In this document: positions 9,133-37,920 of the stretch, in pieces
Numbering within the stretch: position 1 is the stretch's first letter
Layout: each line of letters opens with the position of its first letter
Origin: Coraliomargaritaceae bacterium
GTDB lineage: Bacteria > Verrucomicrobiota > Verrucomicrobiia > Opitutales > Coraliomargaritaceae
Length of the DNA: 64,000 nt
Assembly (NCBI GenBank): GCA_965656495.1
Contig: CBFHKU010000001.1
Span: forward strand, 242,781 to 306,780
Direction of reading: 5' to 3'
Notes under the pieces: model-generated
Database searches by the model: none
What the model saw: only the letters and a program-made list of their open reading frames with translations
What the model was told of the DNA's origin: nothing
Program-made: the position numbers and the translations under genes

Positions 9133-9158
9133 GCATTTAATTCAGGAGACTCCCATTC

Positions 9159-9512: not shown

Positions 9513-9522
9513 CGCCATTGCT

Positions 9523-10050: not shown

Positions 10051-10064
10051 GCCATAGACGCATC

Positions 10065-10619: not shown

Positions 10620-10663
10620 TTGAACTGCCCGCTCCACGCGGGCCCAAGCCTTTCAAACAATTC

Positions 10664-12172: not shown

Positions 12173-12243
12173 TACCCACCGGGTTTCTGACCCGTATCCA
12201 ATTTCCCTTGTTCTTTGAATTCGATTCATTCGCTTGAAAAACG

Positions 12244-13011: not shown

Positions 13012-13086
13012 CTTTCCAAAATCAAATTAACTGCTATTTTTACGCACTTTTCTCGCTTAATAGCGCTCATTTAACACATTAGTACC

Positions 13087-13449: not shown

Positions 13450-13479
13450 GCGCCTGACCGATACACACCCTTTTTTAAA

Positions 13480-14070: not shown

Positions 14071-14129
14071 GGTGATTCTGCCACCCCGACACAACATTTA
14101 ATAGTTCGCAGAAAAACACATAACATATC

Positions 14130-14738: not shown

Positions 14739-14810
14739 TCTTCCTTTGAGTCTGCGCACAGCTCGCAGCTCTCACTCAGTTCCTCGTTCATTTTATCAAC
14801 CAAGAACATT

Positions 14811-15815: not shown

Positions 15816-15848
15816 CAAAACCAGCACACACCGAAACGTTTTACACCA

Positions 15849-18406: not shown

Positions 18407-18461
18407 AAGATTTACTGGCTGGTGTTTTCCTGACCTCTAAAGATTTTGTTGTTCCTTATCC

Positions 18462-19943: not shown

Positions 19944-19982
19944 GTTGTTTCGTTACTTTTTAAACTTGGTTATGTCGATGCG

Positions 19983-21549: not shown

Positions 21550-21602
21550 TCAACCTTTCCGTATCAAAATCTCAAACAACCCAAACCAAACCATAACATA
21601 TC

Positions 21603-21866
21603 ATGAGTGAATCCATTGGATTGATCGAAACGAAGGGCCTCACCGGTTCTATCGAAGCGAGTGACGCCATGGCCAAAGCGGCCTCCGTTGCTCTTGTCAA
21701 GCAAGTCGCCATCGGCGGCGGCTTTCTCACCGTTCTCGTCAAAGGCGACGTCGGCAGCGTAAAAGCTGCGGTTGAAGCCGGTGCCGAGGCCGCCAACCGC
21801 GTCGGAGAGCTCGTGGCCTCCAACGTCATCGCACGTCCCCACCAGGATCTGCTCAAATACTTTTAA
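21603..21866 (+). CDS. BMC-H shell hexamer
   Basis: IGLIETKG, DAMAKAA, GDVGSVKAAV, VIARPH. Confidence 0.96.
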   Translation: MSESIGLIETKGLTGSIEASDAMAKAASVALVKQVAIGGGFLTVLVKGDVGSVKAAVEAGAEAANRVGELVASNVIARPHQDLLKYF

Positions 21867-21901
21867 AGAGCATTATACACTTAACTAAGGAGAAAAATAT
21901 T

Positions 21902-22180
21902 ATGGCTAAACAAGCAATAGGAATGATCGAATGCAAAGGCCTCATCTGTCTGATGGAAGCTGCAGACGCTGCCCTCAAGGCCGCAGACGTATCCATGACC
22001 GGCTGGGAAAAAATCGGCTCGGGACTGGTAACCGGTTTCTTTACCGGTGATGTCGCCGCCGTCAAAGCCGCCATCGAGGCAGGTGCTGAATCCGCCGGAC
22101 AAATCGGTGAAGTCGTTGCAGTGCAGGTAATCCCGCGCCCCCACGACGACCTCGGTAAACTCGGTTCCTGGATCGGGTAA
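21902..22180 (+). CDS. BMC-H shell hexamer
   Basis: AIGMIECKG, ADAALKAA, GDVAAVKAA, VIPRPH. Confidence 0.96.
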   Translation: MAKQAIGMIECKGLICLMEAADAALKAADVSMTGWEKIGSGLVTGFFTGDVAAVKAAIEAGAESAGQIGEVVAVQVIPRPHDDLGKLGSWIG

Positions 22181-22217
22181 ATCCCCGTTCCCGCCCGCCC
22201 GGACGCAACTCCCCCGT

Positions 22218-23399
22218 ATGAAAATCCTCGTCGCCAACCTCGGTTCGACCTCCTTCAAATACCGTCTCTTTGAAATGGGAGCATCCTCTGCGGAACTCCT
22301 CGCGAAGGGCGGTTATGAACGCGTCACCGAATACGCGCCCTGCATTGAGAAAATGCTGGATTCCCTCATCGGGCACGGACACCTCGCCTCCGGCGAGGAT
22401 CTCGACGCGGTCGGTTTCAAGACCGTGCTCGGGAAAGATCTGAGTGGTTGCGTGGAAGCCGATGACGCTGTACTCGAGGCGCTCGCAGGCTTCAAGGAAG
22501 TCGCTCCGGCGCACAACCCCGCCTATGCGGAGGGGATCCGTTGTTTCGAGCAACGACTCCCCGGAGTCAAACGGGTGGCGCTCTTTGAGACCGCCTTTTA
22601 TCAATGGCTGGAACCCGCCAATTACAACTATGCCATTCCCGCCGCCTGGCGTGAACTCGGCATCCGGCGTTACGGTTTTCACGGTGCCAGCCATAAATTC
22701 ATCGCGGAGCGCAGTGCCGAATTGCTCGAGCGCGAAGACGTCGCCCAGCGGGTGCGCGGCCTTTACCAAAACGGCCCCGGCGATTTTAACGCCAAAGCCC
22801 ACCGCGTTATCTCATGCCATTTGGGCGGCAGCAGTTCCGTTACCGGCATCCGCGACGGCGTTGCCATCGGCACCAGTATGGGCTTCAGCCCGCAAAGCGG
22901 ACTGCCCCAAAACAACCGCGTCGGGGATCTCGATTCCATGGCAATTCCCTACGCTACAAAAATGCTCGGCATTTCCGTGGAAGAAGCGGAACGCCAACTC
23001 AACAAAGAGAGCGGGCTCCTCGGACTCTCCGGGGTCAGCAACGATTCCCGCGACATTGAGGCCGCTGCCGCCGAGGGCAATTCCGATGCCATCCTCGCGC
23101 AGGATGTCCTCATCGAAAGCATCCGTCACTGGGCCGGTGCCTTCTTCTTTAAAATGGGTGGCGCAGACGCCATCAGCTTTACCGCCGGGATTGGCGAAAA
23201 CAGCCCCGAGCTGCGCACCGCGATTTGCGCCGGCCTCGAAAGTTTCGGGGTGCGCCTCGACGCCCGCGCCAATGGAGCCGCCGTTCACGGCACCGAGGCC
23301 ATCATCTCTGCCCCCGATTCCAAAATCAAAATCCTCGTGATCCCCGCCAACGAAGAACTCGTCATCGCGCGCGAAGTCTACCGCTTTCTCGATCAATAG
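22218..23399 (+). CDS. ackA: Acetate/lactate kinase family protein
   Basis: ILVANLGSTSFKY, APAHNP, RRYGFHGASH, TAGIGEN, NEELVIA. Confidence 0.93.
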   Translation: MKILVANLGSTSFKYRLFEMGASSAELLAKGGYERVTEYAPCIEKMLDSLIGHGHLASGEDLDAVGFKTVLGKDLSGCVEADDAVLEALAGFKEVAPAHNPAYAEGIRCFEQRLPGVKRVALFETAFYQWLEPANYNYAIPAAWRELGIRRYGFHGASHKFIAERSAELLEREDVAQRVRGLYQNGPGDFNAKAHRVISCHLGGSSSVTGIRDGVAIGTSMGFSPQSGLPQNNRVGDLDSMAIPYATKMLGISVEEAERQLNKESGLLGLSGVSNDSRDIEAAAAEGNSDAILAQDVLIESIRHWAGAFFFKMGGADAISFTAGIGENSPELRTAICAGLESFGVRLDARANGAAVHGTEAIISAPDSKIKILVIPANEELVIAREVYRFLDQ

Positions 23400-23458
23400 T
23401 ATCCAATTTCCAAATACATAATCCACTAACCGAATTAATATCCAACCCAACAAATAAC

Positions 23459-23764
23459 ATGGCAAAACAAGCAATCGGAATCCTCGAAACCAAAGGTCTC
23501 GTTGCCCTCGTGCAAGGCACGGATGCAATGCTCAAGGCCGCTAATGTCGAACTCGCTGGCCCCATGAAGGGCGTCGGCAGCGCTCTCGTAAGCGCCACCA
23601 TCACCGGCGACGTCGCCGCGGTTAACGCCGCGATCGAAGCCGGCTCCGACACCGCCGGACAATACGGTGAAGTCGTCAGCGCGCACGTTATCGCACGTCC
23701 CCACGACGATATCACCGCGATTACACCTGCCAAGGCTGCTCCCGCAAAACGGGCCGCCAAGTAA
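23459..23764 (+). CDS. BMC-H shell hexamer
   Basis: AIGILETKG, DAMLKAANV, HVIARPH; start re-placed at 23459. Confidence 0.95.
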   Translation: MAKQAIGILETKGLVALVQGTDAMLKAANVELAGPMKGVGSALVSATITGDVAAVNAAIEAGSDTAGQYGEVVSAHVIARPHDDITAITPAKAAPAKRAAK

Positions 23765-23768
23765 TCCG

Positions 23769-24083
23769 ATGTATCTCGGAAAAGTCATCGGCTCGGTGGT
23801 CGCCACCAAAAAGGACGCGAGCATGAAGGGGCGCAAGCTCCTCATGTTGCGCCCCATGCTGGTCGATCCCGACAAACCCGGGCAATTCAAGCCGGGCAAC
23901 AACACCATTGTGGCGGTCGATACCCTCGGTGCAGGGGAGGGCGAGCTCGTGATGTTCGCCCAAGGCAGTTCCGCGCGGCAGGCCGATGGCCTCAAGGCCC
24001 TCCCGGTCGATGCTGCCATTGTGGGACTGGTCGATTCCGTCGATATCCTCGGTAAAAACACCTATCAGGCAAAAAACAGTTAA
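23769..24083 (+). CDS. BMC-P vertex protein (EutN/CcmL)
   Basis: MYLGKVIGSVVATKK, VAVDTLGAGEGE, GSSAR, DAAIVGLVD. Confidence 0.95.
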   Translation: MYLGKVIGSVVATKKDASMKGRKLLMLRPMLVDPDKPGQFKPGNNTIVAVDTLGAGEGELVMFAQGSSARQADGLKALPVDAAIVGLVDSVDILGKNTYQAKNS

Positions 24084-24098
24084 TCCCCACCTCTCTCC

Positions 24099-25565
24099 AT
24101 GAGCCAAATCAACGAAGCCGCGATTCGCAACGTCGTCACTGAAGTCCTCGCCCAACTCCAGACCGGGCAAGCCACTGTCGCGACCGCTCCGCCTCCCGCC
24201 AAGGGTCCATCCATCAAGGCGCGCCCCGGGCGCCATGGCGTCTTTGAGGACGCCGCTTCCGCCGCTGCTGCCGCCCGTTCCGGTTACGAACAGCTCAGCA
24301 AAAAAGGCTGGGCAGCTCGCGCCAAAGTCGTCGATATCGTGAAGCAAATGTGCGCCGATAATGCCGACCGTTGGGGTAAAATCGAATTCGAGGAAACCCA
24401 AATCGGGCGCCTCGATCATAAAATCGCCAAGCTTCACGGCATCAAAAACGTCCTCGGAGTCGAATACCTCACGCCCTACGGCATGAGCGGTGACGCCGGT
24501 ATCACGATGGACGATTCCGCTCCCTGGGGCGTCGTCGGGAGCATCACGCCCGTCACCCATTCCGTCCCTACTTTGGCGGGCAACATCGTCAACATTGTCG
24601 CCGCCGGTAACGCCGTCGTCTTCAACCCCCATCCGGGTGGCGCGGCTTGTGCCGCAGTTGCGACCCACGAATTTAACGAAGCCATCAAGGCGGCCCTCGG
24701 CATCGAAAACCTCGTCACCACCGTCGAGAAGCCTTCCCTCGATTCCTTTAACGAGCTCTGCGCCTCGGAGGATGTCGACCTCCTCGTCATCACCGGTGGT
24801 CCCGGCGTGGTCGATGCCGCTATGAAGACCGGTAAACGCGCGATCTGCGCCGGCCCGGGTAACCCTCCGGTGGTGGTCGACGATTGCCACGCCCTCGATT
24901 TCAATAAAGTCGCAAAAGACATCATCCTCGGTGGCGGCTTTGACAACAACCTCCTCTGCATCGGTGAAAAGCAAATCATCGCAGTCGGTGATTCCTACAA
25001 AAAGACCCTCGACGCCCTCAAGCGCGAAGGCGCGGTTCTCCTCACCAAGCAACAGGCTCAGGCGATTCAAAAGGAAGTCTTTGATACCAAGGAAGGCGCG
25101 GGCGGTTGCTCGCACGCCGTCCTCAACCGCAAATACGTCGGTGCCGACGCCGCCACCCTCGCCGCAATCGCCGGCCTCAAAATCGATCCCAAGACCGAAA
25201 TGCTCATCGCAGAAACCGGCGCGGACGACCTCTTCGTCGAAGAGGAGCAAATGATGCCGCTCCTGCCCATCATTCACGCCGGGTGCTTCCCCGAGGCAGT
25301 CCGCATCGCGAAGGCTTCCGAGCACGGCTACAAACACTCCGCCATGGTGCATACCATGAACGTCTCCAATATGACCTACATGGCGCAGGCGATGGACACG
25401 ACCCTCTTTGTGAAGAACGGTCCCTGTGTCGCCGGTCTCGGAATGGGCGGCGAAGGCTATATCAGCTTCTCCATCGCCACCACCACCGGCGAGGGCATCA
25501 CCACTCCCCGCACCTTCACCCGTTACCGCCGCTGCACCCTCGTTGATCAGCTCAACCTTTTCTAA
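24099..25565 (+). CDS. Acylating aldehyde dehydrogenase (EutE/PduP)
   Basis: N-terminal encapsulation peptide; TGGPGVV, AGPGNPP, FDNNLLC, TTGEG. Confidence 0.95.
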   Translation: MSQINEAAIRNVVTEVLAQLQTGQATVATAPPPAKGPSIKARPGRHGVFEDAASAAAAARSGYEQLSKKGWAARAKVVDIVKQMCADNADRWGKIEFEETQIGRLDHKIAKLHGIKNVLGVEYLTPYGMSGDAGITMDDSAPWGVVGSITPVTHSVPTLAGNIVNIVAAGNAVVFNPHPGGAACAAVATHEFNEAIKAALGIENLVTTVEKPSLDSFNELCASEDVDLLVITGGPGVVDAAMKTGKRAICAGPGNPPVVVDDCHALDFNKVAKDIILGGGFDNNLLCIGEKQIIAVGDSYKKTLDALKREGAVLLTKQQAQAIQKEVFDTKEGAGGCSHAVLNRKYVGADAATLAAIAGLKIDPKTEMLIAETGADDLFVEEEQMMPLLPIIHAGCFPEAVRIAKASEHGYKHSAMVHTMNVSNMTYMAQAMDTTLFVKNGPCVAGLGMGGEGYISFSIATTTGEGITTPRTFTRYRRCTLVDQLNLF

Positions 25566-25571
25566 TAATCC

Positions 25572-25832
25572 ATGATTCTCGCCCGCATCGACGGACACGC
25601 TACCGCCAGCGTTGCCCACCCAAGCCTCAAAGGACAAAAAATCGTCCTTTGTACGCCCATTGATGCAGACGGCAAAGCCACCGGTAACCCCATCGCGGCG
25701 CTCGACCCGCTCAGCAGCGGCAAACACAGCCGCGTCTTTATCACCACCGACGGTTCATGGAGCCAAAACACTCTCCACGACGAGACCTCGCCCATCCGCA
25801 ATCAGGTCATCGGCATCATCGACTCACAATGA
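25572..25832 (+). CDS. BMC-P vertex protein
   Basis: MILARIDG, HPSLKGQK, DGS, VIGIID. Confidence 0.9.
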   Translation: MILARIDGHATASVAHPSLKGQKIVLCTPIDADGKATGNPIAALDPLSSGKHSRVFITTDGSWSQNTLHDETSPIRNQVIGIIDSQ

Positions 25833-26122
25833 AACCCGGACGCGTCATCGGAAACGTAACTCTCAGCCAGGCCGCTTCCCAATTCAAGGGCGCGCGCTGG
25901 CTCCTTGTTGCGCCCATGGGCCCCGCCGAGTTGACCGACCAACGCCTCTACGGCAACGAATCCAGCCCGGTGGTCTACGACAAACTCGGCGCGGGGGTGG
26001 GGGACCCGATCCTCTATGTGGAGGGCGCCGAAGCCACTCAACCCTTCGAGGACAATATCCCCCTCGATGCTATCACCGTCGCGCTGGTCGACACCTACGA
26101 TTTTTCTCAACCGGAACTTTAA
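25829..26122 (+). CDS. BMC-P vertex protein
   Basis: GRVIGNVTLS, VVYDKLGAGVG, EGAEA, PLDA; ATGA overlap with the previous gene. Confidence 0.9.
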   Translation: MKPGRVIGNVTLSQAASQFKGARWLLVAPMGPAELTDQRLYGNESSPVVYDKLGAGVGDPILYVEGAEATQPFEDNIPLDAITVALVDTYDFSQPEL

Positions 26123-26146
26123 AACAAACAACTTATATTTAATATT

Positions 26147-27235
26147 ATGAGCAAACTCTACACCGCCAAAGAATTGGAGCGCATGTTGAAAAATGGTGAG
26201 TCCCTCGCCAGCGTTCCTGCCAACGCAAAACTGACGCCGATGGCGCGCGACATCCTGCGCCAGCACCGCAAAAACGGGAAGAGCGCCGCCGCGCCCGCCG
26301 CTGCTGCCCCGCAGGGCCAGAGCCCCCGCATCCACGAACCCGTCCTCCCCGACGCGGAATACAACTGGACCCCCGGCGGCGACCCCAAAAACGCCCGCGA
26401 TCTCGAGAAATTTTTCTATTCCCCTGAAATCCAGGCCATCAAGGAACGCATCTGCCATATCGGTAAACGCATCTGGAACAAAGGCTATGTCGACGGCAAC
26501 GGCGGCAACATCACGGTGCGCGTCGGCGACAACCTCGTCCTTTGTACACCCACCCTTATCTCCAAAGGCTTCATGACCCCCGACGATATCTGCATGGTCG
26601 ATCTCGACGGCAACCAAGTCGCCGGCACCCGTCCGCGCACCTCCGAGGTCAACACCCACCTCGGCATCATGAAAAACGAGCCCAAGGCGAAATCCTGCGT
26701 GCACGCGCACCCCGTTTACGCCACCGCCTTCGCGGTCGCGGGCGTCACCCCGCCGTCCTGCCTCATCCCCGAGCCCGAAGTCTTCCTCGGTGAGATCGGT
26801 TTCGCTTCCTACCAGACCCCCGGCACCCCCGAGAACGCCAAGGAAGTCGGCCAACTCGCCAAAAAACACCAGTCCATCCTCATGCAAAACCACGGCGTCA
26901 TCTGCTGGGGTAAAGATGTCGAAGATGCCTACTGGAAAATGGAAAACACCGACGCCTTCTGCCAAACCGTTTCCATCACCATGCAAATCGGCGGCCCCAA
27001 ACAATACGGCCCCGACAAACTCAAGGAACTCATCGTCCTGCGCAAAAAACTCGGCATGCCCGACCACCGCCTCGACGAGCTCAAAGAATGCGAACTCTGC
27101 GATGCCGCCGATTACACCGTCACCACCGCGCCGCAACCCGCCGCCTGTTCCTGTGAAATGCCCGCCGCAAATGCCCCCGTCGATGAAGCTTTAGTTCAGA
27201 AAATTACTGACATCATCATGGAAAAGTTGAAATAA
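26147..27235 (+). CDS. Class II aldolase (fuculose/rhamnulose-1-phosphate type)
   Basis: GNGGNI, TPT, SKG, TSE, HAHP, NHG; C-terminal encapsulation peptide. Confidence 0.93.
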
Positions 27236-27263
27236 TAAGGATTCCTTCAACGAAAAACGCTTT

Positions 27264-28259
27264 ATGAAAAAAGATCCAATTCGAGTCGCAGTCACAGGCG
27301 CCGCCGGTAACATCGGTTACGCCCTCCTTTTCCGCATCGCGTCCGGCGCGATGTTCGGCCCCGACCAACCGGTCGCCCTCAATCTCATCGAGATTGAGCC
27401 GGGTCTCGCACCCCTCAAGGGCGTCGCCATGGAACTCGACGACTGCGCCTTCCCCCTCCTCACCGAAATCGTCCAGACCGCCGACCTCAACGAAGGCTTC
27501 AAGGACGTCGACTGGGCACTCCTCGTTGGATCCGTTCCCCGCAAACAGGGCATGGAACGCGCCGACCTCCTCGGCATCAACGGCAAAGTCTTCGTCGGGC
27601 AGGGCAAGGCCATCAATGACAACGCCAAACCCTCCGTCCGCGTCGTGGTCGTCGGCAACCCCTGCAATACCAATTGCCTCATCGCCATGACCAGCGCCCC
27701 CGATATCCCCAACGAGCAATTCTTCGCGATGACCCGCCTCGACGAAAACCGCGCCAAGACCCAGCTCGCCCAACAAGCCGGCGTCCCCGTCTCCGAGGTC
27801 ACCGAACTCTGCGTCTGGGGCAACCACAGCCCCAGCATGTTCCCCGATTTCTACAACGCCAAAATCGGACGCCAACCCGCCGATAAAGTCATCGGCGACG
27901 AAGCCTGGCTCAAGGAAACCTTTGTCCCCACCGTCGGACAACGCGGCAAGGCCATCATCGACGCCCGAGGCGCTTCCTCTGCCGCCTCCGCCGCCAACGC
28001 GGTGGTCGATACCGTCCGCGACCTCGTCACCCCCACCCGGGGCGGCTTCCATTCCGTCTGCGTCGTCTCCGGCGGTGAATACGACACCCCCGCCGGGATC
28101 ATCACCTCCCTTCCCATCAAAGTCGACGGCGTCGGCAAATGGCGCGTTGTCGAAGGGCTCCAGCTCAACGACTACGCCAAGGCCCAGATCAAAGCCTCCA
28201 ACGACGAACTCCTCGAAGAGCGCAAACTCGCCTTCGGCCAGCTCGGACTTCAGGTTTAA
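27264..28259 (+). CDS. mdh: Malate dehydrogenase (type 2)
   Basis: [50 protein letters not shown]. Confidence 0.95.
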
Positions 28260-28267
28260 AGGGTTCA

Positions 28268-29112
28268 AAAGTGGGAAAGTATGAAAGTGGGAAAGTAGTT
28301 TCCCCTTCGTGCGATCCGTGCCATTCGTAGTTTTTTCACCACTGAGGCTGCGGAGTTGAACGTTGTTAGTTGGAAGTTGAACCACCCGCCGTGAAAGCGA
28401 CAATCCTGTCGCTTTTCAACCCAAGCCGCACCAGCCGTGGAAGCGACAATCCTGTCGCTTTTCAACCCAAGCCGTACAACCAAAGCGACAAGAGTGTCGC
28501 TTCCACGAGATACAAGCCATTCGTGCCTATTCGTGTCCATTCGTGGTTCCAACCAACAACCCCCTCAACGTTCAATGTTCGATGTTCAACGTTCGGAGTT
28601 CTTCAACCTTCCCACCTTCATACCTTCCCACCATTTAATATTCGTGCGATCCGTGCCATTCGTAGTTTTTTCACCACTGAGGCTATGGAGTTGAACGTTG
28701 TTAGTTGAACCAACCGCCGTGGAAGCGACAATCCTGTCGCTTTTCAACCCAAGCCGCACCAGTCGTGGAAGCGACAATCCTGTCGCTTTTCAACCCAAGC
28801 CGCACCAGTCGTGGAAGCGACACTCCTGTCGCTTTTCAGCAACAAGCCGTACCAGTCGTGGAAGCGACACTCCTGTCGCTTTTCAACCCAAGCCGTACAA
28901 CCAAAGCGACAAGAGTGTCGCTTCCACGAGAGACAACCCTTTGCTCATTAAGAGTAAGAATAAGATTAGGATTAAGAGTGTGGAGTTGAATATTGTTAGT
29001 TGAATGTTGGAAGCCCCCGCCCTCAAAGTTCAATGTTCAAAGTTCGATGTTCGATGTTTCCACACCTTCATACCTTTCCACCTTCATACCTTCCCACCTA
29101 TACGCTTTCCCG
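28268..29112. repeat. Composite repeat array: REP/REPIN palindromes plus 6-10 bp tandem motifs
   Basis: Multiple GTGGAAGCGACAATCCTGTCGCTTTT copies, inverted partners AAAGCGACAAGAGTGTCGCTTCCAC, and TTCCCACC/TTCATACC, ATTCGTG, TGTTCAA, TAAGAT units. Confidence 0.92.
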
Positions 29113-29161
29113 CCTCTAAATCCCAGCTACCGCCTCCTGAAAAGAGCCAGCGCGAAAAGGA

Positions 29162-29347
29162 TTAAAGAAGCTCCGGCTTTTTCGCCCGCTTCTTAGGTCT
29201 GCGCCGCTGTGATGGAGAGTGAAATTCTTCCCTGATCTTTTTAAAAACTGGGTCGTCGGGGTCTGCAAGCCGCATAGATTTGAACCCGTGACGAGGTGCG
29301 GCCTCCATCAAAGCTTCATTAATTCTAGCTCTTTCTCTTTTGGTCAT
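29162..29347 (-). CDS. Putative antitoxin partner of the BrnT-like toxin
   Basis: 61 aa; overlaps the toxin 3' end; paralog at 51519-51704. Confidence 0.7.
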   Translation of the reverse strand: MTKRERARINEALMEAAPRHGFKSMRLADPDDPVFKKIREEFHSPSQRRRPKKRAKKPELL

Positions 29348-29627
29348 ACTGCTCTTTAAGTTTGCTGTCTTCTCTAACGCTTATCAATCGAATTCTTTTT
29401 TCATGGTAAGCAAAAATAACTAGTAGAAACATACCCCGATTACTCTTTCCATACAAGCCATAACGCCTCGGCCCTTTACCATCCTTCGCTATAACATTCA
29501 TCGCGTTTTTATCACAAAAAACCGACATTGCCGCACTGAAGGGCGGCCTTCCCATTGAAACATTCCGATCGGACTTCCACTTGCTCCAAATAAACCGTCC
29601 GGAAATAACATCCTTGCGTTTGTCCAT
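29325..29627 (-). CDS. BrnT (DUF497)-like toxin
   Basis: FIWSKWKSDRN...F..A..VF.D...RIRLISVR pattern; paralog at 51682-51984. Confidence 0.75.
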   Translation of the reverse strand: MDKRKDVISGRFIWSKWKSDRNVSMGRPPFSAAMSVFCDKNAMNVIAKDGKGPRRYGLYGKSNRGMFLLVIFAYHEKRIRLISVREDSKLKEQYDQKRKS

Positions 29628-29636
29628 CGTTTAAAA

Positions 29637-30127
29637 AGCCCTGAGGTCTGGCACCGCTAGGACACAAAGGGATGGGGCCAGCCTAGCTGGCGACCGCTGA
29701 TTTGCGCTGACTCACGCTGATACATTTTTATAAGCGTCTATCAGCGCCCATTAGCGGTTTCCGGCTCTGCCGGACTCAGGGCAGCACGCAAGCCATCCCT
29801 ATCCGTGTAATCTGTGTTATTCGTAGTTGCCTTCATCCGTGCGTATTCGTGCCCATTCGTGGTTCCCTCGAATCCCACAGCAAAGAGCCCAGCCCCACCT
29901 ATCCGCTGTGCTTCTCCCGGGACCTTAGCGTCTATCAGCCCCCATCATCGGTTTCCGGCACTGCCGGACTCAGGGCAGCACGCAAGCCATCCCTATTCAT
30001 GCCATTCGCTTCATTCGGAGTTCTTCAACCTTCCCACCTTCCCACCTTCATACCTTCCCACCTTCCCACCTTCCCACCTTGATACCTTCCCACCTTCCCA
30101 CTTTCCCACCTTGATACCTTCCCACCT
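29637..30127. repeat. 70-bp direct repeat with an inverted partial copy, then a TTCCCACC array
   Basis: 29733-29802 nearly equals 29927-29996; 8-mer tandem array at about 30028-30127. Confidence 0.85.
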
Positions 30128-30149
30128 CTAAATCCCCCTTCCCGGAATA

Positions 30150-30166
30150 TTGGCACGCTTTAGGCT
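30150..30166 (+). promoter_or_regulatory. Sigma54 (-24/-12) promoter
   Basis: TTGGCACGCTTTAGGCT, GG-N10-GC spacing. Confidence 0.65.
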
Positions 30167-30176
30167 ACTTCATGCC

Positions 30177-30255
30177 ACGTAACTTCACTTACCATAGTAG
30201 AGTTGCAGTTTTGCTTACGGGCTTGCGGGACTGGTTCCTGCAAGCCCGTTTTTTT
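30177..30255 (+). ncRNA. Candidate sigma54-dependent small RNA (about 80 nt)
   Basis: Bounded by the sigma54 promoter and a 14-bp hairpin + T7; no ATG downstream of the predicted start site. Confidence 0.5.
30217..30255 (+). terminator. Rho-independent terminator
   Basis: ACGGGCTTGCGGGA-ctggt-TCCTGCAAGCCCGT followed by a T-run. Confidence 0.85.
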
Positions 30256-30336
30256 ACCGGTATCGCCGTTAAAAATACACAAAATATACGCTTTGGGTTG
30301 ACCGCTCCCTTTTTGTAGTGAAATTATGTTCACCTA

Positions 30337-30651
30337 ATGGAGTATTATCAACACCAAGCCCGCGAACACGATTTGCCCTTTCGCAGCGACGGCGACGCCC
30401 TCAACCTCCTCGAGGAACAACGCGCCGCCCTCGCATGCCTGCACGACGCCGTCCAACGCTGCCAATACGAAGACATGCGCACCCGCCCCGTCCTCGCCGC
30501 CCTCGATTTCCTCGCCACCAGCCTCCCCAGCGGACGCGGCGCCGACGCCGCCCTCCAGCATTTCCGCCAGGCCCTCGCCCTCGCACACCCCCAACAACGC
30601 GCCCAGACCCTCCAACACGCCTACCGCTCCATCGAACTCGCCGCGGAGTGA
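30337..30651 (+). CDS. Hypothetical helical protein
   Basis: 104 aa ORF with strongly C-ending codons; TTGACC upstream. Confidence 0.7.
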   Translation: MEYYQHQAREHDLPFRSDGDALNLLEEQRAALACLHDAVQRCQYEDMRTRPVLAALDFLATSLPSGRGADAALQHFRQALALAHPQQRAQTLQHAYRSIELAAE

Positions 30652-30740
30652 AGGGGGGATCGGTATTCTGGGCCCGCAGCTCTAGCGGTATGAATGTTCC
30701 TATGTGGAATCTTGGTTCCTGATTGTATGATGATAATTAA

Positions 30741-30768
30741 TTGGGTAATAAATTCCATTATGTTAAAT
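30741..30768. other. dif-like XerC/XerD recombination site
   Basis: TTGGGTAATAA-ATTCCA-TTATGTTAAAT; right arm equals the E. coli XerD arm; 11-6-11 layout; lies at the skew switch. Confidence 0.65.
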
Positions 30769-31149
30769 ATAATTTTGATCTTAATTTGTCTCCTCGTCGG
30801 CTGTGTCGGTACGCCGGAACCATTAGGCGAAACCAATAATACTGCAGCTCCGGGAATTGTGCAGATAAATATCCGGACTGGAGTAACAAACAAGATTCGG
30901 GTCCTTCAAAATTTAGGCAGTCCCAATTTTGTGGAATTCGACCCTTTCAGGGAGTGGTCAGTTTGGGTTTATCTGATCGAAGCACAGATCAGCGAGAGTC
31001 CTACCAAACCGGGCTATTGGACGATTTTAATGCCCAAGAAAACAGCACCCCCGTCCGCCACGGAAACTATATTCAAAACAAAGAAGTTATATATCAGCAT
31101 CAGTGATCATAATGTCGTTAAAGAAATCAGTTATCTCGAGTTCGATTAA
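30760..31149 (+). CDS. Putative lipoprotein (SmpA/BamE-like), AT-rich
   Basis: Lipobox LVGC; G.T..RVLQNLGSP...W.Y pattern; start uncertain because it overlaps the dif-like site. Confidence 0.55.
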   Translation: MLNIILILICLLVGCVGTPEPLGETNNTAAPGIVQINIRTGVTNKIRVLQNLGSPNFVEFDPFREWSVWVYLIEAQISESPTKPGYWTILMPKKTAPPSATETIFKTKKLYISISDHNVVKEISYLEFD

Positions 31150-31208
31150 GCATTGCTTCCAACACGCCAACCGCTCCATCGAACTCGCGGGGGGAGTGAA
31201 GTAGGTTG

Positions 31209-31784
31209 TTACCCTTTAACAATGCCGCGGTCGAGGAGTTCGAAGTAGCAGCGGGCGCAGGCTTGGACGTCGTTCATGGCGTCGTGGGCGCCGTCGAAGT
31301 CGGTATCAAATAGTTTTTGGTGGAGCTCGGAAAGTTTGGGCCATTTGTATCCGTAGTTGCCGGGGATGGCGCAGTAATCGGTGGCGATTTCTTTGGTGCA
31401 ACAGTGGGCGGGTTTGTTGCGGGATTTGAGTCCGGCGCGGAGGCATTCGGCGCCGAGGACGGGGTAGTCGTAGCTGAGGTTGTGGGCGATGAGTTGGGTG
31501 CTGCGCTCGATTTGTTCGAGGAATCCTTGGAGGGCGTCTTGGATGGGGATGCCTTCGGCGATGGATTTTTCCTGGGAGAAGCCGTGTTCGATCCAGAAGG
31601 GTTCGGTGGGAATTTCCCAGCCGTCGGGTTGGATGAGGTCGACTTGTTGGGCGAGGCAGTTGCGGTCTGCGTCGTAGTAGGCCCAGGCGAGTTGAATGAC
31701 GCGGGGCCAGTTGTCGAGGTCGGCGAGGGGGGCTTCGTAGCGTTTGGGGAGTCCGGTGGTCTCGGTGTCGAAGATGAGATACAT
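31209..31784 (-). CDS. DEDDh 3'-5' exonuclease (DnaQ-like)
   Basis: FDTETTGLP, IAHN..YD, KWPKLSELH, AHDAMNDV; alternative start 31814. Confidence 0.92.
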   Translation of the reverse strand: MYLIFDTETTGLPKRYEAPLADLDNWPRVIQLAWAYYDADRNCLAQQVDLIQPDGWEIPTEPFWIEHGFSQEKSIAEGIPIQDALQGFLEQIERSTQLIAHNLSYDYPVLGAECLRAGLKSRNKPAHCCTKEIATDYCAIPGNYGYKWPKLSELHQKLFDTDFDGAHDAMNDVQACARCYFELLDRGIVKG

Positions 31785-31857
31785 ACTTTTATGGGGAATT
31801 GGGTTCCGCGCCATAAAAGTTAATAATGATTCATAAATAAAGTTAATTTGAGAGAGG

Positions 31858-32415
31858 AATAATGGTGGGAAGGTTGAAGAACTTCGAACGTTGAACATCG
31901 AACTTTGAACGTTGAGGGGTTGTTGGTTGGAACCACGAATGGACACGAATAGACACGAATGGGGTTTTAGGGTCACTGACTTGTTGCCATGTGCCCGGCA
32001 TAGCCGGGAACCACTAATCTTCACTAATTTACACTAATGGGGAAGGCGTAGAGGTGGGAAAGTATGAAGGTGGGAAAGTATGAAGGTGGGAAAGTGGGAA
32101 GGTATGAAGGTGGTAAGGTTGGGGAACTTTGAACGTTGAGGAGGTTGTTGGTTGGAACCACGAAATACACGAAAAGCACGAATGGGAGTGGGAGAACTAA
32201 CAACCTGCAACTAACAACATTCAACTCCACACTCTTACTCTTAGGAAGAAAAGGGTTGTATTACGTGGAAGCGGCAATCCTGCCGCTTTGCTTGTTGCTG
32301 AAAAGCGACAGGAGTGTCGCTTCCACGGCTGGTTGCTCGAAAGCGACAGGATTGTCGCTTCCACGGCGGGTGCGGCTTGGGGAGGAACCACGAAATACAC
32401 GAAAGGCACGAATGG
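31858..32415. repeat. Composite repeat array, reverse orientation relative to 28.3-29.1 kb
   Basis: GGTGGGAA/GTATGAA, CACGAAT, TTGAAC, AAAGCGACAGGAGTGTCGCTTCCAC. Confidence 0.9.
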
Positions 32416-32429
32416 GAGGGGGGATTGTT

Positions 32430-35400
32430 TTACTGGGTGGTTTTGCTGGGGTGGAACCAGGGGAAGAGGGCGGGTAGGACGAGGAGGGTGAGGAGGGTGG
32501 AGCTGAGGAGTCCGCCGGTCACGACGAGGGCGAGGGGGCGTTGGACTTCGCTGCCGGCGCCGTGGGCGAGGAGGAGGGGGAGGAGGCCGAGTCCGGTGGT
32601 GAGGGCGGTCATGAGGACGGGGCGGAGTCGTCGGGTGGCGGCTTCGATGGCGGCTTGGGCGGGTGGATCGCCGTCTTGTATGCGTTGGCGGGTGGTGGTG
32701 ATGAGGACGAGTCCGTTGCCGAGGGCGATGCCGAAGAGTGCGATGAATCCGACGGTGGCGGGGACGGAGAGGTTTTCTCCGGAGAGGTAGAGGGCGGCGA
32801 TGCCGCCGACGAGGGCGAGTGGGATGTTGAGTAGGATGAGGAGGCTGTGGCGGAGGGAGCCGAGGGCGGTATATATCATGATGAGGATGAGGAGGAGGGT
32901 AAGGGGGATGACGAGGGCGAAGCGTTGGTTGGCTTCTTGTTGGAGTTTATAGGTGCCGCCCCAGGTGGTGAGGGTTCCGGGGGGGAGTTGGACTTGTTGT
33001 TCGATGGCGTTTTCGGCTTCGGCGACGAAGCTGCCGATGTCGCGTCCGGAAACGTTGGCTTGAATGGCGATGAAGCGTTGGCTGTGTTCGCGGGTGATTT
33101 GGCGTGGGCCGACGAGGGTTTTGAGGGTGGCGATTTCGTTGAGTGGGACGAGGGCGCCTTGGGGGCTACGGATGAGGGTTTGGCTGATGGCTTCTGGGTT
33201 GTTGCGGTATTGTGGGGGGTAGCGGACGAGGATGTCGAAGCGTCGGATGCCTTCAAAGATGAGTCCGGCGCGGGTACCGCCGATGCCGGTTTGAATGACG
33301 TTTTGGATGTCGGCGACGTTGAGGTTGTAACGTGCGGCGGCGGCGCGGTCGATTTGGATGAGGAGTTGTGGGGCGCCGGTGACTTGGTCGACCTGGACAT
33401 CGCGGGCGCCTTCGATTTTGGCGAGGACGGTGGCGATTTGGTTGGCGTTATGGAGGAGGGTGTCGAGGTCTTCGCCGAAGACTTTGAGGGCGAGTTCTGC
33501 TTGGACGCCTTCGAGGAGTTCGTCGACGGACATTTCGATGGGCTGGGTGTAGTTTACGATGACGCCGGGGGGGTGGCCGATGGCTTTGCGGAGGGATTCA
33601 ATCATGGCTTCGGCATCGTAGGGGACGCGCCATTGGGCGGGGGGTGTCATGAGGAGGTAGAGTTCGGCGGCGTTGATGGGGTCGGCGTGGGCACCGATTT
33701 CGCCGCGTCCGATGCGGGTGACGACTTCGTTGACTTCGGGGACTTCGAGGAGGCGTCGCTCGATGGCCTGGGTCATGTGTCGGGAGGTGTCGATGGCGAT
33801 GGAGGGTGCCATCTTGAGTTTGACGACGAGGGTGCCTTCGTTGAGGCGTGGGGTGAATTCGGTGCCGAGGCGTGGGATGAGGGTGAGTCCGAGGGCGAGG
33901 ATGAGGAGGGCGGCGAGGCTGGTGAGGCGGGGGCGTGCGACGAAGGTTGCGAGGATTCGGCGGTAGGCGTTTTGGAGGCGGGGCGGGCGCGGGTTGGGGT
34001 GGTTTTTGTTTTTTGGGGGCCGCATGCAGGCATGGGCGATGACGGGGCTGATGAGGAGGGCGTAGAGGAGGGCGCCGGTCATGGCGAGGGCGATGGCGTA
34101 AGCGAGGGGGCGGAAGGTTTTGCCTTCGACTCCGGTGAGGGTGAAGAGGGGGAGGAAGACGAGGATGATGATGGCGACTGCGAAGCCGACGGGTCGGGCG
34201 ACTTGGACGCAGGCTTGGATGACGGAATCGGTGCGGGGGTTGTTGGGCTTGGCGCGGAGGTGCTGGTCGATGTTTTCGGTCATGACGATGGCACCATCGA
34301 CGAGCATGCCGATTGCGATGGCGATTCCACCGAGTGACATGAGGTTGGCGGAGATGCCGAGGTAATGCATTCCGAGGGCGGCAAAGAGGACGGAGAAGGG
34401 GAGGGCGAGGGCGACGACGACGGTGGGTCGCCAACCGCCCATAAAGAGGGTGAGGGTAAATGCCACGAGGGCGATGCCTTGAATGAGGGCATGGGTGACG
34501 GTGCGAATAGCGGCTTCTACGAGGGTTTTTTGCTGGTAGTAGGGGACGATTTGAATGCCTTCGGGGAGGCTTTCGTTAATTTTTTGGATTTTGTCTTCGA
34601 CTGCCTGAATGACGGTGGAGGCGTTGGTGCCGAAGAGTTTGATGACTTGCCCGGCGACGACTTCGCGGATTCCGTTGTGGGATTGTAGGCCGCGGCGGAT
34701 GGCTTGGCCTTCGCGGACGTGTGCGACTTCCCGGATGGTGATGGGGGTGCCGTCGAAGCTGCCGAGGAGGATGGCGCGGAGGTCCTCGATTCCGGTGGCG
34801 AGGCCGATGGAACGGACGACGTATTCTTCGTTGTTTTGTTCGATGTATTGAGCGCCGATGTTGAGGTTGTTGGCTTCGAGGGCGTCGATGACATCGTTGA
34901 CGGTGAGGGCATAGCGTTCGAGGGCGAGGGGGTCGACCTCGATGTGGAATTGTTTTTCGTAGCCGCCGATGCCGAGGACTTCGGTGACGCCGGGGACGTT
35001 TTGGAGGTTGAATTTAATAATCCAATCCTGAATGGAGCGCAGCTCGGTGAGGGAATAGGTGCCGGTGGAGTCCTCGAGGTAATAGAAGAGGACTTGCCCC
35101 ATGCCAGTGGAGATAGGGCCCATTTCGGGTTGTCCGAATCCGGAGGGGATGTTGTCGCGGGCTTCGTTGAGGCGTTCTCCGACGAGTTGGCGACAGAAGT
35201 AGATATCCATGCCGTCTTTGAAGTAGACGTTTACGACCGAGAGCCCGAAGTTTGAAATAGAACGGACGTTCTGGATTCCGGGGAGTCCGTTCATGGCGGT
35301 TTCTACGGGGAAGGTGACGTATTTTTCAATTTCCTCGGGGGCGAGTCCTTCGGTGACGGTGAAGACTTGGACGAGGTTGGGAGAGACGTCGGGGAAGGCG

Positions 35401-35507
35401 TCGACCGGAAGTTTCTTAAAGCTCTGGAACCCGCCGGCGATGATGAGGGCGAGGAGCGTGAAGACGAGGAGGCGTGCCTGAATGCAATATTCGAAGAGTC
35501 GTTTCAT
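32430..35507 (-). CDS. czcA: Heavy-metal RND efflux permease (CzcA/CusA)
   Basis: VDAFPDVS, ANLMSLGG, GMLVDGAIV, GVEGKTFRPLA, RLRPVLMTA, EVQRPLA. Confidence 0.95.
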   Translation of the reverse strand: MKRLFEYCIQARLLVFTLLALIIAGGFQSFKKLPVDAFPDVSPNLVQVFTVTEGLAPEEIEKYVTFPVETAMNGLPGIQNVRSISNFGLSVVNVYFKDGMDIYFCRQLVGERLNEARDNIPSGFGQPEMGPISTGMGQVLFYYLEDSTGTYSLTELRSIQDWIIKFNLQNVPGVTEVLGIGGYEKQFHIEVDPLALERYALTVNDVIDALEANNLNIGAQYIEQNNEEYVVRSIGLATGIEDLRAILLGSFDGTPITIREVAHVREGQAIRRGLQSHNGIREVVAGQVIKLFGTNASTVIQAVEDKIQKINESLPEGIQIVPYYQQKTLVEAAIRTVTHALIQGIALVAFTLTLFMGGWRPTVVVALALPFSVLFAALGMHYLGISANLMSLGGIAIAIGMLVDGAIVMTENIDQHLRAKPNNPRTDSVIQACVQVARPVGFAVAIIILVFLPLFTLTGVEGKTFRPLAYAIALAMTGALLYALLISPVIAHACMRPPKNKNHPNPRPPRLQNAYRRILATFVARPRLTSLAALLILALGLTLIPRLGTEFTPRLNEGTLVVKLKMAPSIAIDTSRHMTQAIERRLLEVPEVNEVVTRIGRGEIGAHADPINAAELYLLMTPPAQWRVPYDAEAMIESLRKAIGHPPGVIVNYTQPIEMSVDELLEGVQAELALKVFGEDLDTLLHNANQIATVLAKIEGARDVQVDQVTGAPQLLIQIDRAAAARYNLNVADIQNVIQTGIGGTRAGLIFEGIRRFDILVRYPPQYRNNPEAISQTLIRSPQGALVPLNEIATLKTLVGPRQITREHSQRFIAIQANVSGRDIGSFVAEAENAIEQQVQLPPGTLTTWGGTYKLQQEANQRFALVIPLTLLLILIMIYTALGSLRHSLLILLNIPLALVGGIAALYLSGENLSVPATVGFIALFGIALGNGLVLITTTRQRIQDGDPPAQAAIEAATRRLRPVLMTALTTGLGLLPLLLAHGAGSEVQRPLALVVTGGLLSSTLLTLLVLPALFPWFHPSKTTQ

Positions 35508-35527
35508 GGATGCTTGGGCGGTTGTTA

Positions 35528-36601
35528 CTAGTGGGCGTGTCCGTCGCCGAAGTTTTCTTTTTGGGCATCGGCTTTAAGAAAGAAACCGCCTTTGGATACG
35601 TAGGATTCGCCGGGTTGAAGGCCGTCGATAATGGCGATGTGATCGGCGTCCTCGGAGCCAATGGTAACGGTGCGGGGTTTGAAGCCTTCGGGGGTTGGGA
35701 CAAAGACAACCTCGTGGTCTTCCATTGTAATGACGCTGACGCGGGAGACCACTACGGGGAAGGTTTCGCGGTCGAGCTTAAGGTTGCCGATAACGAAGAG
35801 GCCGGGGCGGAGGAGTCCTTTTTTATTGGAAACAACGGCGCGGATGAGGCTGGTGCGACTGGTTTCGTCGACGACCGGGCCGAGATAGGAGATTTGCGCC
35901 TCGATCGCGGGGAAGTTGTCTCCGAAGTCGAGGGTAACGGATTGCCCGATACGGACGCGGGGGAGGTCTCGTTGGTAGAGGCGTAAGTCGACCCATACCG
36001 AGGTGGTATCGGCGATGGTGTACATGAGTTCGCCGGCCTCGAAGCTTTCGCCCGGGGTGATGTGGAAATCGGTAATGGTGCCGTCGAGGGTGGCGGTGAG
36101 TTGGAAGGGGCGGAGGCTTTCGTTGCTTTCCATTTCTGCGAGGACTTCGCCGGCTTTGACGGTGTCGCCGAGGCGTTTATGGATGCGTTTGACTATCCCG
36201 GCGAAACGGGGGCTGACGTGAGTGACGGTATTCTCGTTGACGCGGACTTCGCCGGTAAGGAGCAGGTTTTTTTGGATGGAACCGGATTGAGCTACGGCAA
36301 GTTCGATACCAAATTCTTCCTGATCTCGTGGGTCAATCGCATGTGCTTTTGGGTCTTCGTGATCCTGGTCTTCCGGAGCGATGTGATCCAAATCTTCATC
36401 GTGATCGTGATTATGATCGTCATGATCATCGTGCTCATGTTGTTCCGACATTTGTATCGCGGTTGTTTCAGTATTGTTTGCCGGATCGTGGTTGTCCTCT
36501 TGGTTGTGCCTTGCTGGTTTGCAGGCACTCAGAATGAACGGGAATAAGCTAAGAATGATTATGCGAATCGCAAGGGATTGGCTTGGAGCTTTGTTTTTCA
36601 T
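35528..36601 (-). CDS. czcB: RND periplasmic adaptor (CzcB) with His-rich linker
   Basis: Lipobox-like LSAC, HEHDDHDDHNHDH, LRPGLFV, C-terminal GHAH. Confidence 0.9.
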   Translation of the reverse strand: MKNKAPSQSLAIRIIILSLFPFILSACKPARHNQEDNHDPANNTETTAIQMSEQHEHDDHDDHNHDHDEDLDHIAPEDQDHEDPKAHAIDPRDQEEFGIELAVAQSGSIQKNLLLTGEVRVNENTVTHVSPRFAGIVKRIHKRLGDTVKAGEVLAEMESNESLRPFQLTATLDGTITDFHITPGESFEAGELMYTIADTTSVWVDLRLYQRDLPRVRIGQSVTLDFGDNFPAIEAQISYLGPVVDETSRTSLIRAVVSNKKGLLRPGLFVIGNLKLDRETFPVVVSRVSVITMEDHEVVFVPTPEGFKPRTVTIGSEDADHIAIIDGLQPGESYVSKGGFFLKADAQKENFGDGHAH

Positions 36602-36621
36602 GATTTTGACTATGGAAAAGT

Positions 36622-37920
36622 TTATGGGGTATTCGGAAGAGAAGCGGTGAGTTTTAGGATTTCCGTTTGGGCCAGATTGTAATCGCGGAGGGCATTGAGG
36701 TGGCTCTCGCGGAGGTCGAAGAGGGTTTGACGCGCCTCAAGAACGGCGAGTTGGGTGAATTTCCCTTGCTGGTAACCTGCTTCGGTACGGCTGAGGGTTT
36801 CCTTGGCAGCGGGGAGGAGTTCACGGGCGATGGAATGGACCTCGGCGTGAGCGGTGGTGAGGGCTTGATAGGCACGGTTGAGTTGAATGCGCAAGCTGCG
36901 TTGGAGGCGTATCTTTGCTTGTTGGTTGGCATGGCGGAGGGCGGTGGCGCTATGGATATTGCCTTTGTTTTTATCAAAGAGGGGCCAGGGGATTTGAAGG
37001 CCCAGGATGAAGGCGCCGTCACCATCGGCTTCGTTGAAGTAGCGCCCGCCGGCGAAGACTTCGAGGTCGGGAACGGCGCGGGCTTTTTCTAACTGGATGG
37101 CGGCCTCATAGCGGCGATTTTGGGCCTTGAATGCGGCGAGGGAGGGATTTGCGTGGAGCTGGGCGGAGAGGGTTTCATAAGCGGGCAGGTCGGGGCTCAG
37201 AGCAAGCGAACCCACCGGCTCGAAGTTTTCGGATTCGGGTGCCTCGCTCCAGAGGCTGGCGAGTTCGGCTTTGGCGCTCGCATAGGCTCGCTGCGCGGAT
37301 TGCAGGGCAAAGTTTTGTTGTCGCACCGCAAGTTGGGCGCGGGCGGCTTCTACTTGAGGGGAAAGGGCTGCTTTGACGAGGCGTTCGGTTTCGGCGGCGC
37401 TTGCTTTGGCAAGTTGGACTTGTTCCTGACGCAGGGAAAGATCTTTCGCGGCAAGGAGGGCATTGACGAATGCGGCTCGCAGGCGGGCCTCTATTTCAAG
37501 GCGAAGGATTTTGGCCTCCCAGAGGGTTTCGGCGTATTGAGCCTTAGCGAGCTCGACTCGGCGGGGCCGCTTCTTTGCGGTCTCGAGGGTCTGACTCAGA
37601 CTAAGGGTGAATTCCAGAGATTGCACCCCACGCATCGGGCCGCTGCCGAGGAAGTTGCCCAGTTCAGCGGAAATAACGGGGTTGGGCAGACGACCGGCCT
37701 GTTGGATTTGCCCGGCAGCGACCTCGGTTTGGGCGATATTTTCTGCGAGGGCGGGATGCTGGCGCAGGGTGCGCTCCAAAGCGTCGTTGAAGCTGAGTTT
37801 TACCTCAGGAAGGCTTTCTCCGTTAAGGGATAGCGCTAAATAGAATGGGATATATTTGATTAAATAAAAAAAATTCATGTTGAGGCGATTACGAATGAGA
37901 CGAAGCGAGCTTTTATGCAA
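36622..37920 (-). CDS. czcC: TolC-family outer membrane factor (CzcC)
   Basis: RLPNP, PLFDKNKGNI, GYQQGK..L.VLEA; start may be 37878. Confidence 0.9.
   Translation of the reverse strand: MHKSSLRLIRNRLNMNFFYLIKYIPFYLALSLNGESLPEVKLSFNDALERTLRQHPALAENIAQTEVAAGQIQQAGRLPNPVISAELGNFLGSGPMRGVQSLEFTLSLSQTLETAKKRPRRVELAKAQYAETLWEAKILRLEIEARLRAAFVNALLAAKDLSLRQEQVQLAKASAAETERLVKAALSPQVEAARAQLAVRQQNFALQSAQRAYASAKAELASLWSEAPESENFEPVGSLALSPDLPAYETLSAQLHANPSLAAFKAQNRRYEAAIQLEKARAVPDLEVFAGGRYFNEADGDGAFILGLQIPWPLFDKNKGNIHSATALRHANQQAKIRLQRSLRIQLNRAYQALTTAHAEVHSIARELLPAAKETLSRTEAGYQQGKFTQLAVLEARQTLFDLRESHLNALRDYNLAQTEILKLTASLPNTP

Follow-up and report, generated by a model that had tools for sequence, protein, structure and literature searches.

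The window is a 64,000-nucleotide stretch (C1:242781-306780) of the draft genome of a Coraliomargaritaceae bacterium (G000; 2.06 Mb, 31 contigs). At 30.65 to 31.2 kb of the window, its + strand switches sharply from C-rich to G-rich between two convergent genes, orf104 and an exonuclease gene (Table 1). A small insert between them holds a 28-bp motif that resembles the dif site of Escherichia coli, and a ribosomal protein (r-protein) cluster lies to the left. A sequence-only reading of the window had proposed a replication terminus here, with a functional dif and a C-rich leading strand. Here, we report that this switch bounds a local skew-discordant stretch on its right side and is neither an origin nor a terminus. 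The locus is probably best explained by two unrelated features, a chance motif in an insert and an old local skew-discordant segment that codon bias in the neighbouring genes makes look larger than it is.

Relatives of G000 were taken under their public-record labels (Coraliomargaritaceae or Opitutales, phylum Verrucomicrobiota). Genes outside the window were called with our own codon-usage caller; Pfam checks covered 48 open reading frames (ORFs), all in the window, and r-protein genes in the window were named from synteny and length. Composition is given as GC skew at third codon positions (GC3 skew) and as GC and AT skew at 4-fold sites (GC4 and AT4 skew). In a simple additive model of our own, third-position skew of the + strand is the sum of a replication-type term and a coding-strand term. 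Genes of the window were compared with 539 leading-strand genes and with 440 lagging-strand genes elsewhere in the genome (the latter at least 600 bp long).

The skew switch, the insert and its dif-like motif

The C-to-G switch is real and sharp. In 2-kb windows, skew changes from −0.219 (29001-31000) to +0.358 (31001-33000) and +0.421 (32001-34000), and + strand GC3 skew changes from −0.73 in orf104 (30337-30651, +) to +0.72 in the exonuclease gene (31209-32024, −, as listed). Three base counts made by hand in the sequence-only reading proved exact (33 C and 13 G at 30481-30540; 34 G and 8 C at 32461-32520; 32 G and 12 C at 41581-41640). To the right of the switch, the + strand is G-rich in genes of both strands, including the AcrB operon (−) and a photolyase gene (+), both Pfam verified. 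The right side cannot be put down to gene strand alone, since plus-strand genes farther right (photolyase and others) also have a GC3 skew of about +0.5. To the left, the milder skew described for minus-strand genes was borne out (−0.05), as was the distance of about 14 kb to the r-protein cluster (rplQ ends at 16463, 14.2 kb from the switch). The apparent 46-kb block of negative skew that ends here begins at tuf, 15.6 kb ahead of the window, where its left edge is equally sharp (+0.31 in the gene before tuf, −0.33 in tuf).

Skew is unusually strong on both sides of the block (31209-45000 in the window and C1:219-227 kb), with a replication-type term of about 0.55 to 0.65 in those two stretches versus about 0.25 genome-wide. 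The + strand GC3 skew of the RND operon is +0.85, +0.68, and +0.50; the first value is that of the AcrB-type gene, whose 4-fold sites are 0.75 C and 0.06 G.

The junction itself contains a 0.5-kb low-GC insert flanked by two copies of the 44-bp 3′ end of orf104; the direct repeats were detected at 30611-30646 and 31158-31193. The insert is single copy in G000. The gap between orf104 and the exonuclease gene is 87 bp in G002 and 31 bp in G005, and these empty sites align with both G000 junctions; the gap is likewise short in G001. The insert, with its junctions, is no assembly artefact: contigs from four marine metagenome runs, belonging to four studies, extend across it. Misassembly at the junction, which the sequence-only reading had allowed for, is thus unlikely: congeners share the junction and the independent metagenome contigs span the insert. 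No joint skipping the insert was seen among the 15 joints listed of 75 in the metagenomes, and an insert-free form may exist in those populations. The ends of the insert consist of the duplicated gene end (44 bp) rather than a short target duplication or inverted repeats.

The motif, TTGGGTAATAAATTCCATTATGTTAAAT, is present where it had been reported. It shares with the chromosomal dif of E. coli (a 28-bp XerC/XerD site) the 11-6-11 layout and the inner ATAA/TTAT symmetry, and its right arm is identical to the E. coli XerD arm as quoted in the sequence-only reading. That arm (30758-30768) also holds the ATG (30760) of a lipoprotein ORF, which begins MLNIILILICLLVGC, a signal peptide with a lipobox. 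Only two homologues of the lipoprotein were found (19 candidates; 5.8 billion clusters searched); they are 98 to 99% identical and 129 amino acids (aa) long, a length that places the start at ATG 30760. The exact 11-mer of the right arm has a single copy in the 2.06-Mb genome, the one in the window. About 0.5 copies per genome are expected from composition, so a single copy is unremarkable, and only the position of the motif made it look special. With up to one mismatch, the 11-mer occurs three times in the window against 0.61 expected, a count reached in 2 of 100 shuffles.

The dif site of the lineage

A scan for palindromic dif-like sites yielded a site on another contig of G000 (C7:74947-74974). 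With up to three mismatches, this 28-mer has exactly one copy in each of 16 of the 31 related genomes, G000 included; a reversed control pattern had no matches. The consensus of the 16 sites is nnTnCGCACAA-TATATA-TTATGTCTAAT, with an invariant right arm. The C7 site lies between rplM-rpsI (C7:73.9-74.8 kb, −) and a tRNA-Leu gene (75047-75131), where skew fades from positive through zero to negative (sign change at 70 to 80 kb), and it is 1.1 kb from a gene matching the xerD equivalog (342.6 bits; cut-off, 329.6). A XerC-like gene is encoded on C1. The same position relative to skew was found in a relative assembled as one contig, G012, in which dif at 1,083,281 falls between a skew of +0.054 (1.05 Mb) and skews of −0.019 and −0.110 (1.10 and 1.25 Mb). 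Judged by its 11-6-11 layout, single copy, conservation, G-to-C position and Xer genes, the C7 site is, on sequence grounds, the real dif of this lineage. The placement of dif at a G-to-C switch shows that, in this lineage, leading strands are G-rich.

Kono et al. 2011 (PMC3025954) report a predicted dif in three of three Verrucomicrobia. Full-text literature searches found no paper on the dif of this lineage or on skew-discordant segments next to r-protein genes. A dif consensus and location are given here for marine Coraliomargaritaceae/Opitutales genomes.

Compared with the lineage consensus, the window motif agrees at 14 of 24 conserved positions (9/11 in the right arm, 3/7 in the left arm, and 2/6 in the spacer, counted by eye against the consensus of 16 sites). 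It thus differs at two right-arm, four left-arm, and four spacer positions, and neither its left arm nor its spacer fits the consensus. Unlike known dif sites, it is not conserved, with no copy at the orthologous place (the insert is missing in G002 and G005); it sits in an insertion, overlaps a start codon, and is not at a G-to-C switch, since the switch here runs from C to G and is paired with a G-to-C switch 46 kb leftward. We conclude from these comparisons that the motif is in all appearance a chance look-alike of the E. coli dif inside a species-specific insertion.

The proposal of a terminus, with a working dif and the C-rich strand leading, has accordingly next to no chance of being correct. 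Its support was the 11-6-11 layout with an exact E. coli-type XerD arm, together with the XerC-like and XerD proteins encoded in the genome. Against it, a better conserved dif lies elsewhere, at a G-to-C switch near xerD, the G-rich strand is leading, and the window motif is missing from congeners; the proposal is refuted by the very kind of evidence that the sequence-only reading had named. The same near-zero probability applies to the variant in which the motif is a Xer site that mobilised the insert in the manner of an IMEX (Xer-integrated element). That candidate was rejected: the insert has a single motif, its flanks are the duplicated 44-bp gene end where an IMEX would have two dif-like sites, and the chromosomal dif lies elsewhere. 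A terminus of inverted polarity would have been at odds with the rule of G-rich leading strands; with the real dif at a normal G-to-C switch, that rule stands unchallenged. The locus illustrates how easily an E. coli-type motif may be misread outside the Proteobacteria.

The position of dnaA relative to dif was recorded in two relatives. In G012 (3.06 Mb), dnaA maps to 866.5 kb and dif to 1,083 kb, with the C-to-G switch at about 1.80 Mb; dnaA is thus separated from dif by 217 kb and from that switch by about 0.93 Mb. By skew, the replichores of G012 would be about 0.72 and 2.35 Mb long. In G004, dnaA (C1:12.9 kb) is 111 kb from dif (C1:124 kb).

The skew-discordant stretch and its cause

On C1, two stretches of the + strand (0-227 kb and 274-416 kb) are G-rich, and skew is negative only over 230-270 kb; the running estimate of the replication-type term is likewise positive along C1 except at 240-276 kb. 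The two flanks of the block (227 kb and 143 kb) have nearly the same + strand GC3 skew in plus-strand and minus-strand genes (+0.10 and +0.45 on the left, +0.09 and +0.43 on the right). Inside the block, the values are −0.42 and +0.03, like those of the whole C-rich contigs C2 and C4. As both flanks are G-rich and the opposite switch lies 46 kb leftward, the switch is neither an origin nor a terminus; it is the right edge of a local skew-discordant stretch. Among the readings offered earlier, locally inverted skew and a rearrangement junction thus hold, in the sense of an edge of a discordant stretch within a long G-rich (leading-strand) region. The accompanying suggestion of an origin is not supported.

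A chromosomal replication origin at the junction, C-to-G being the normal oriC polarity, is very unlikely. The junction has that polarity, it is sharp, skew is very strong on both sides, and an r-protein cluster is nearby, as is typical of origin-proximal regions. In G000, dnaA is on a contig other than C1, and dnaA is an unreliable origin marker in this family, given its distances from dif and from the C-to-G switch in G012 (217 kb and about 0.93 Mb). An oriC, however, separates two long replichores of opposite skew, and here opposite polarity extends for only 14 to 46 kb leftward before 227 kb of G-rich sequence (in G002, the equivalent polarity continues for a further 145 kb). No DnaA-box cluster was found at the junction; one box with one mismatch occurs in the 10 kb around it, using the DnaA box consensus TTATCCACA, which may differ from the lineage's own. 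Genome-wide, the same scan (up to one mismatch) found 360 boxes, and the sole cluster was a tandem repeat at C6:50.9 kb. A conserved AT-rich element is also lacking, as the sole AT-rich stretch at the junction is the species-specific insert. Finally, the r-protein, rpoBC, and tuf genes would all run head-on to a fork leaving such an origin.

The orientation of tRNA genes was uninformative as a leading-strand marker, with 17 on the G-rich and 13 on the C-rich strand. Placing the G000 origin by homology to the C-to-G switch of G012 (about 1.80 Mb) also failed: the genes flanking that switch map to C11, a contig on which skew does not switch; a rearrangement therefore separates the two genera at this place.

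Much of the block can be accounted for by codon usage. Its order is tRNA-Thr, tuf, rplKAJL, rpoBC, and the str, S10, spc, and alpha operons, followed by Mqo-FGGY-DeoR on the minus strand, a microcompartment-type operon, a malate/lactate dehydrogenase (MDH) gene, and orf104. Third positions of coding strands are C-rich on average (coding-strand term of about −0.18), and average GC4 skew is 0.00 in leading-strand genes and −0.50 in lagging-strand genes. In the highly expressed genes rpsB, tsf, rplT, groEL, and atp, which are on the leading strand by context, GC4 skew is −0.52 to −0.62 and AT4 skew is −0.35 to −0.40. The block genes tuf to rpoC (−0.48 and −0.58) and rpsL to rplQ (−0.66 and −0.44) match this class. 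The latter pair of values is also that of the part inside the window (1..16463), where coding GC3 skew is −0.27 to −0.65. In G012 and G014, r-protein clusters on the G-rich strand still dip to −0.15 and −0.26. Because highly expressed leading-strand genes are equally C-rich, the negative skew over about 32 kb from tuf to rplQ needs no inversion; highly expressed genes strongly favour C-ending codons, and those of tuf, rplKAJL, rpoBC, str, S10, spc, and alpha all lie on the + strand, which accounts for their skew. This is the pattern of translational-selection codon bias, with C-rich, G-poor third positions shared by r-protein, rpoBC, tuf, groEL, and atp genes whatever their replication context. 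In this genome, highly expressed genes alone can therefore flip the apparent GC skew over 32 kb.

The same bias cannot explain the minus-strand genes, orf104, or the non-coding stretch beside it. In the last 14 kb of the block, from Mqo to orf104, leading-type and lagging-type compositions are swapped, and this segment is truly discordant. Coding GC3 skew is +0.03 in Mqo, −0.05 in FGGY, and −0.02 in DeoR (GC4 skew, +0.02 versus −0.50 for the average lagging-strand gene), and only 14 of the 440 lagging-strand genes elsewhere reach −0.05 or higher, which puts the three in the top 3%; these genes form the core of the discordance. Conversely, MDH (−0.68) and orf104 (−0.73) are outside the 2% tail (−0.51) of the 539 leading-strand genes. 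The 12 discordant genes in a row at C1:255-271 kb form the longest such run in the genome. In MDH, GC3 skew is −0.50 to −0.68 in congeners, −0.12 in G012, and −0.24 to +0.13 in 15 of 19 more distant loci.

It has been weighed whether the switch involves no change of replication type at all and merely marks C-rich coding strands meeting where transcription converges. The junction is a convergent gene pair, coding strands are C-rich at third positions, far more so in highly expressed genes, and this does explain tuf to rplQ. It is nonetheless quite improbable as a full account: Mqo, FGGY, and DeoR are near 0 instead of at the lagging-type −0.4 to −0.5, orf104 and MDH are past the leading-strand tail, MDH is at only −0.12 in G012, and the non-coding stretch at 28.3-30.3 kb is C-rich too. 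Transcription in the neighbourhood was rejected as a cause of the discordant minus-strand genes, as lagging-strand genes surrounded by opposite-strand neighbours elsewhere in the genome are not shifted (rho, −0.07; n = 428).

A local skew-discordant segment is a known kind of feature. Flanks of the same polarity with swapped compositions inside are secure for 16.9-30.65 kb, and the segment resembles an intra-replichore inversion or inverted insertion in being a short opposite-skew stretch with sharp edges. It is also old. Contig C13 of G002 and C1 are collinear between 274.8 and 54 kb of C1, a span that includes both edges of the block, and the polarity of C13 persists for another 145 kb. The junction of the exonuclease gene and orf104 is common to G001, G002, G004, and G005, and MDH lies beside this pair in G002, G004, and G005; the G001 locus gave no match to MDH. 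Orientation of the segment is identical in all four congeners with data, and outgroups have other neighbours. An old inversion or inverted transposition is, by inference, the most likely cause. The Mqo-orf104 segment would have come into reverse orientation in an ancestor of the genus, and the convergent boundary between orf104 and the exonuclease gene would be a breakpoint of that rearrangement.

Several observations weigh against this explanation. Compared with rpsB, tsf, and rplT (about −0.3), the r-protein genes of the block (about −0.5) are more negative by about 0.2, an excess that makes the left limit of the discordance uncertain. The discordance, full in G000, is partial in G002, G004, and G005, in which the replication-type term is about 0 and not reversed. 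Between G000 and G002, identity at 4-fold sites is 0.43 to 0.48 overall and 0.35 to 0.39 in Mqo, FGGY, and DeoR, against about 0.34 expected from composition. With these sites near saturation, the relic of one pre-genus inversion should have largely decayed, yet the segment is genus-wide and undecayed, which the inversion leaves unexplained and which counts most heavily against it. No inverted repeats were found between the ends of the 46-kb block or around Mqo-DeoR, and in no outgroup was the 14-kb segment seen reversed; beyond the genus, it simply has different neighbours.

Some of these points would be expected if an ongoing local process kept a domain of 14 to 46 kb discordant, for example through leftward forks that often start or restart at the junction next to the heavily transcribed r-protein array, or through altered replisome behaviour in and just beyond that array. 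Either would cancel or reverse the mutational strand asymmetry of the domain. All four species examined (G000, G002, G004, and G005) show the discordance despite near saturation, and the very sharp switch has the strongest skews of the genome on both sides (−0.73 on the left, +0.72 to +0.85 on the right). In G004, the orf104 homologue is on the other side of the exonuclease gene and has a coding GC3 skew of +0.73, the mirror of the G000 value, as if genes take on the composition of their side. The discordance also appears graded, from none in tuf-fusA through about one-third in S10-alpha to full in Mqo-orf104. On the other hand, the only DnaA box in 10 kb is the single one-mismatch match noted above, no known mechanism supports it, the saturation estimate is rough, the strongest signal comes from three minus-strand genes, and skew elsewhere in the genome shows no neighbourhood effect. 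We regard such a process as possible though unlikely. More specifically, mutational equilibrium might maintain the discordance of Mqo-orf104, and maybe that of some of the r-protein array, which would then be no relic; this claim is improbable. If it were true, the genus would have a conserved boundary 14 kb downstream of the r-protein superoperon at which effective replication strand asymmetry changes, for instance a secondary initiation or restart site from which forks would run leftward, opposite to the replichore, and enter the genes with the heaviest transcription. Under the inversion or inverted transposition that we favour, the remaining small puzzle is that a 14-kb skew-discordant segment has been kept across the genus.

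Gene map of the window

Table 1. Features of the window from the r-protein operons to the RND efflux operon
Feature	Coordinates	Strand	Basis or composition
fusA 3′ end and S10, spc, and alpha r-protein operons (secY, adk, map, rpoA, rplQ)	1..16463	+	Orthologues in r-protein clusters of G002, G012, G014
Mqo, FGGY sugar kinase, DeoR regulator	16901..20747	−	Pfam; leading-strand-type composition
Microcompartment-type operon and MDH	20863..28259	+	Pfam; lagging-type composition, coding GC3 skew −0.43 to −0.70
Repeat-rich non-coding stretch	28260..30336		+ strand C-rich, skew −0.21
BrnT-like ribonuclease toxin ORF (type II toxin-antitoxin family), inside the repeat-rich spacer	29325-29627	−	Pfam
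orf104, genus-wide conserved hypothetical, last gene of the C-rich side	30337..30651	+	Coding GC3 skew −0.73
Left copy of the 44-bp direct repeat (true orf104 3′ end including stop codon)	30610..30653	+	
Strain-specific insert with one ORFan lipoprotein gene	30654..31157	+	GC 0.42
dif-like 11-6-11 motif (right arm, 30758-30768)	30741..30768	+	
ORFan lipoprotein gene (ATG 30760, stop at 31149)	30760-31149	+	
Right copy of the direct repeat (duplicated orf104 3′ end)	31158..31203	+	5 bp from the exonuclease gene stop codon
RNase_T/DnaQ-like exonuclease gene, first of the G-rich side	31209..31840	−	Pfam PF00929
Repeat-rich non-coding stretch	31841..32429		Skew +0.33; GGGAAGGT arrays
RND efflux operon (AcrB-like pump, membrane-fusion protein, outer-membrane factor)	32430..37920	−	Pfam

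Homologues of orf104 in G001, G002, G004, and G005 are 58 to 80% identical to it, and no Pfam family matched orf104. The 271-aa exonuclease ORF as listed (to 32024) is over-extended: its first ~60 codons are repeat derived and match repeat copies elsewhere in the genome, and congener exonucleases align only from residues ~31 to 80 onward, to residue 271.

The microcompartment operon proper (20863-27235) encodes PduL, two small shell-like ORFs, acetate kinase, aldehyde dehydrogenase, another small ORF, and a class II aldolase, with the DeoR regulator and FGGY kinase genes upstream; it is of the Planctomycetes/Verrucomicrobia type. The order aldehyde dehydrogenase-aldolase-MDH is kept in 28 of the 38 examined loci from Opitutales and other Verrucomicrobiota.

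Repeats in the stretch left of orf104 (28260..30336) are dense over 28260-30140 and comprise 8-nt arrays of ACCTTCCC, tandem repeats of about 60 nt whose units contain a GAAGCGACA...TGTCGCTTT hairpin, CACGAAT-type short repeats, and one 96-nt repeat pair. The repeat families recur in inverted orientation at 31841..32429 (dense over 31850-32430) and so flank the junction on both sides. Metagenome contigs break within these repeats and show numerous joints to further copies. For the BrnT-like toxin ORF in the left stretch, an antitoxin may be encoded directly downstream on that strand, at about 29.1-29.3 kb.

Long shadow ORFs (up to 668 aa, e.g., 23721-25727, −) lie opposite real genes. Strong strand composition removes stop codons, so picking the longest ORF would mis-annotate this genome.

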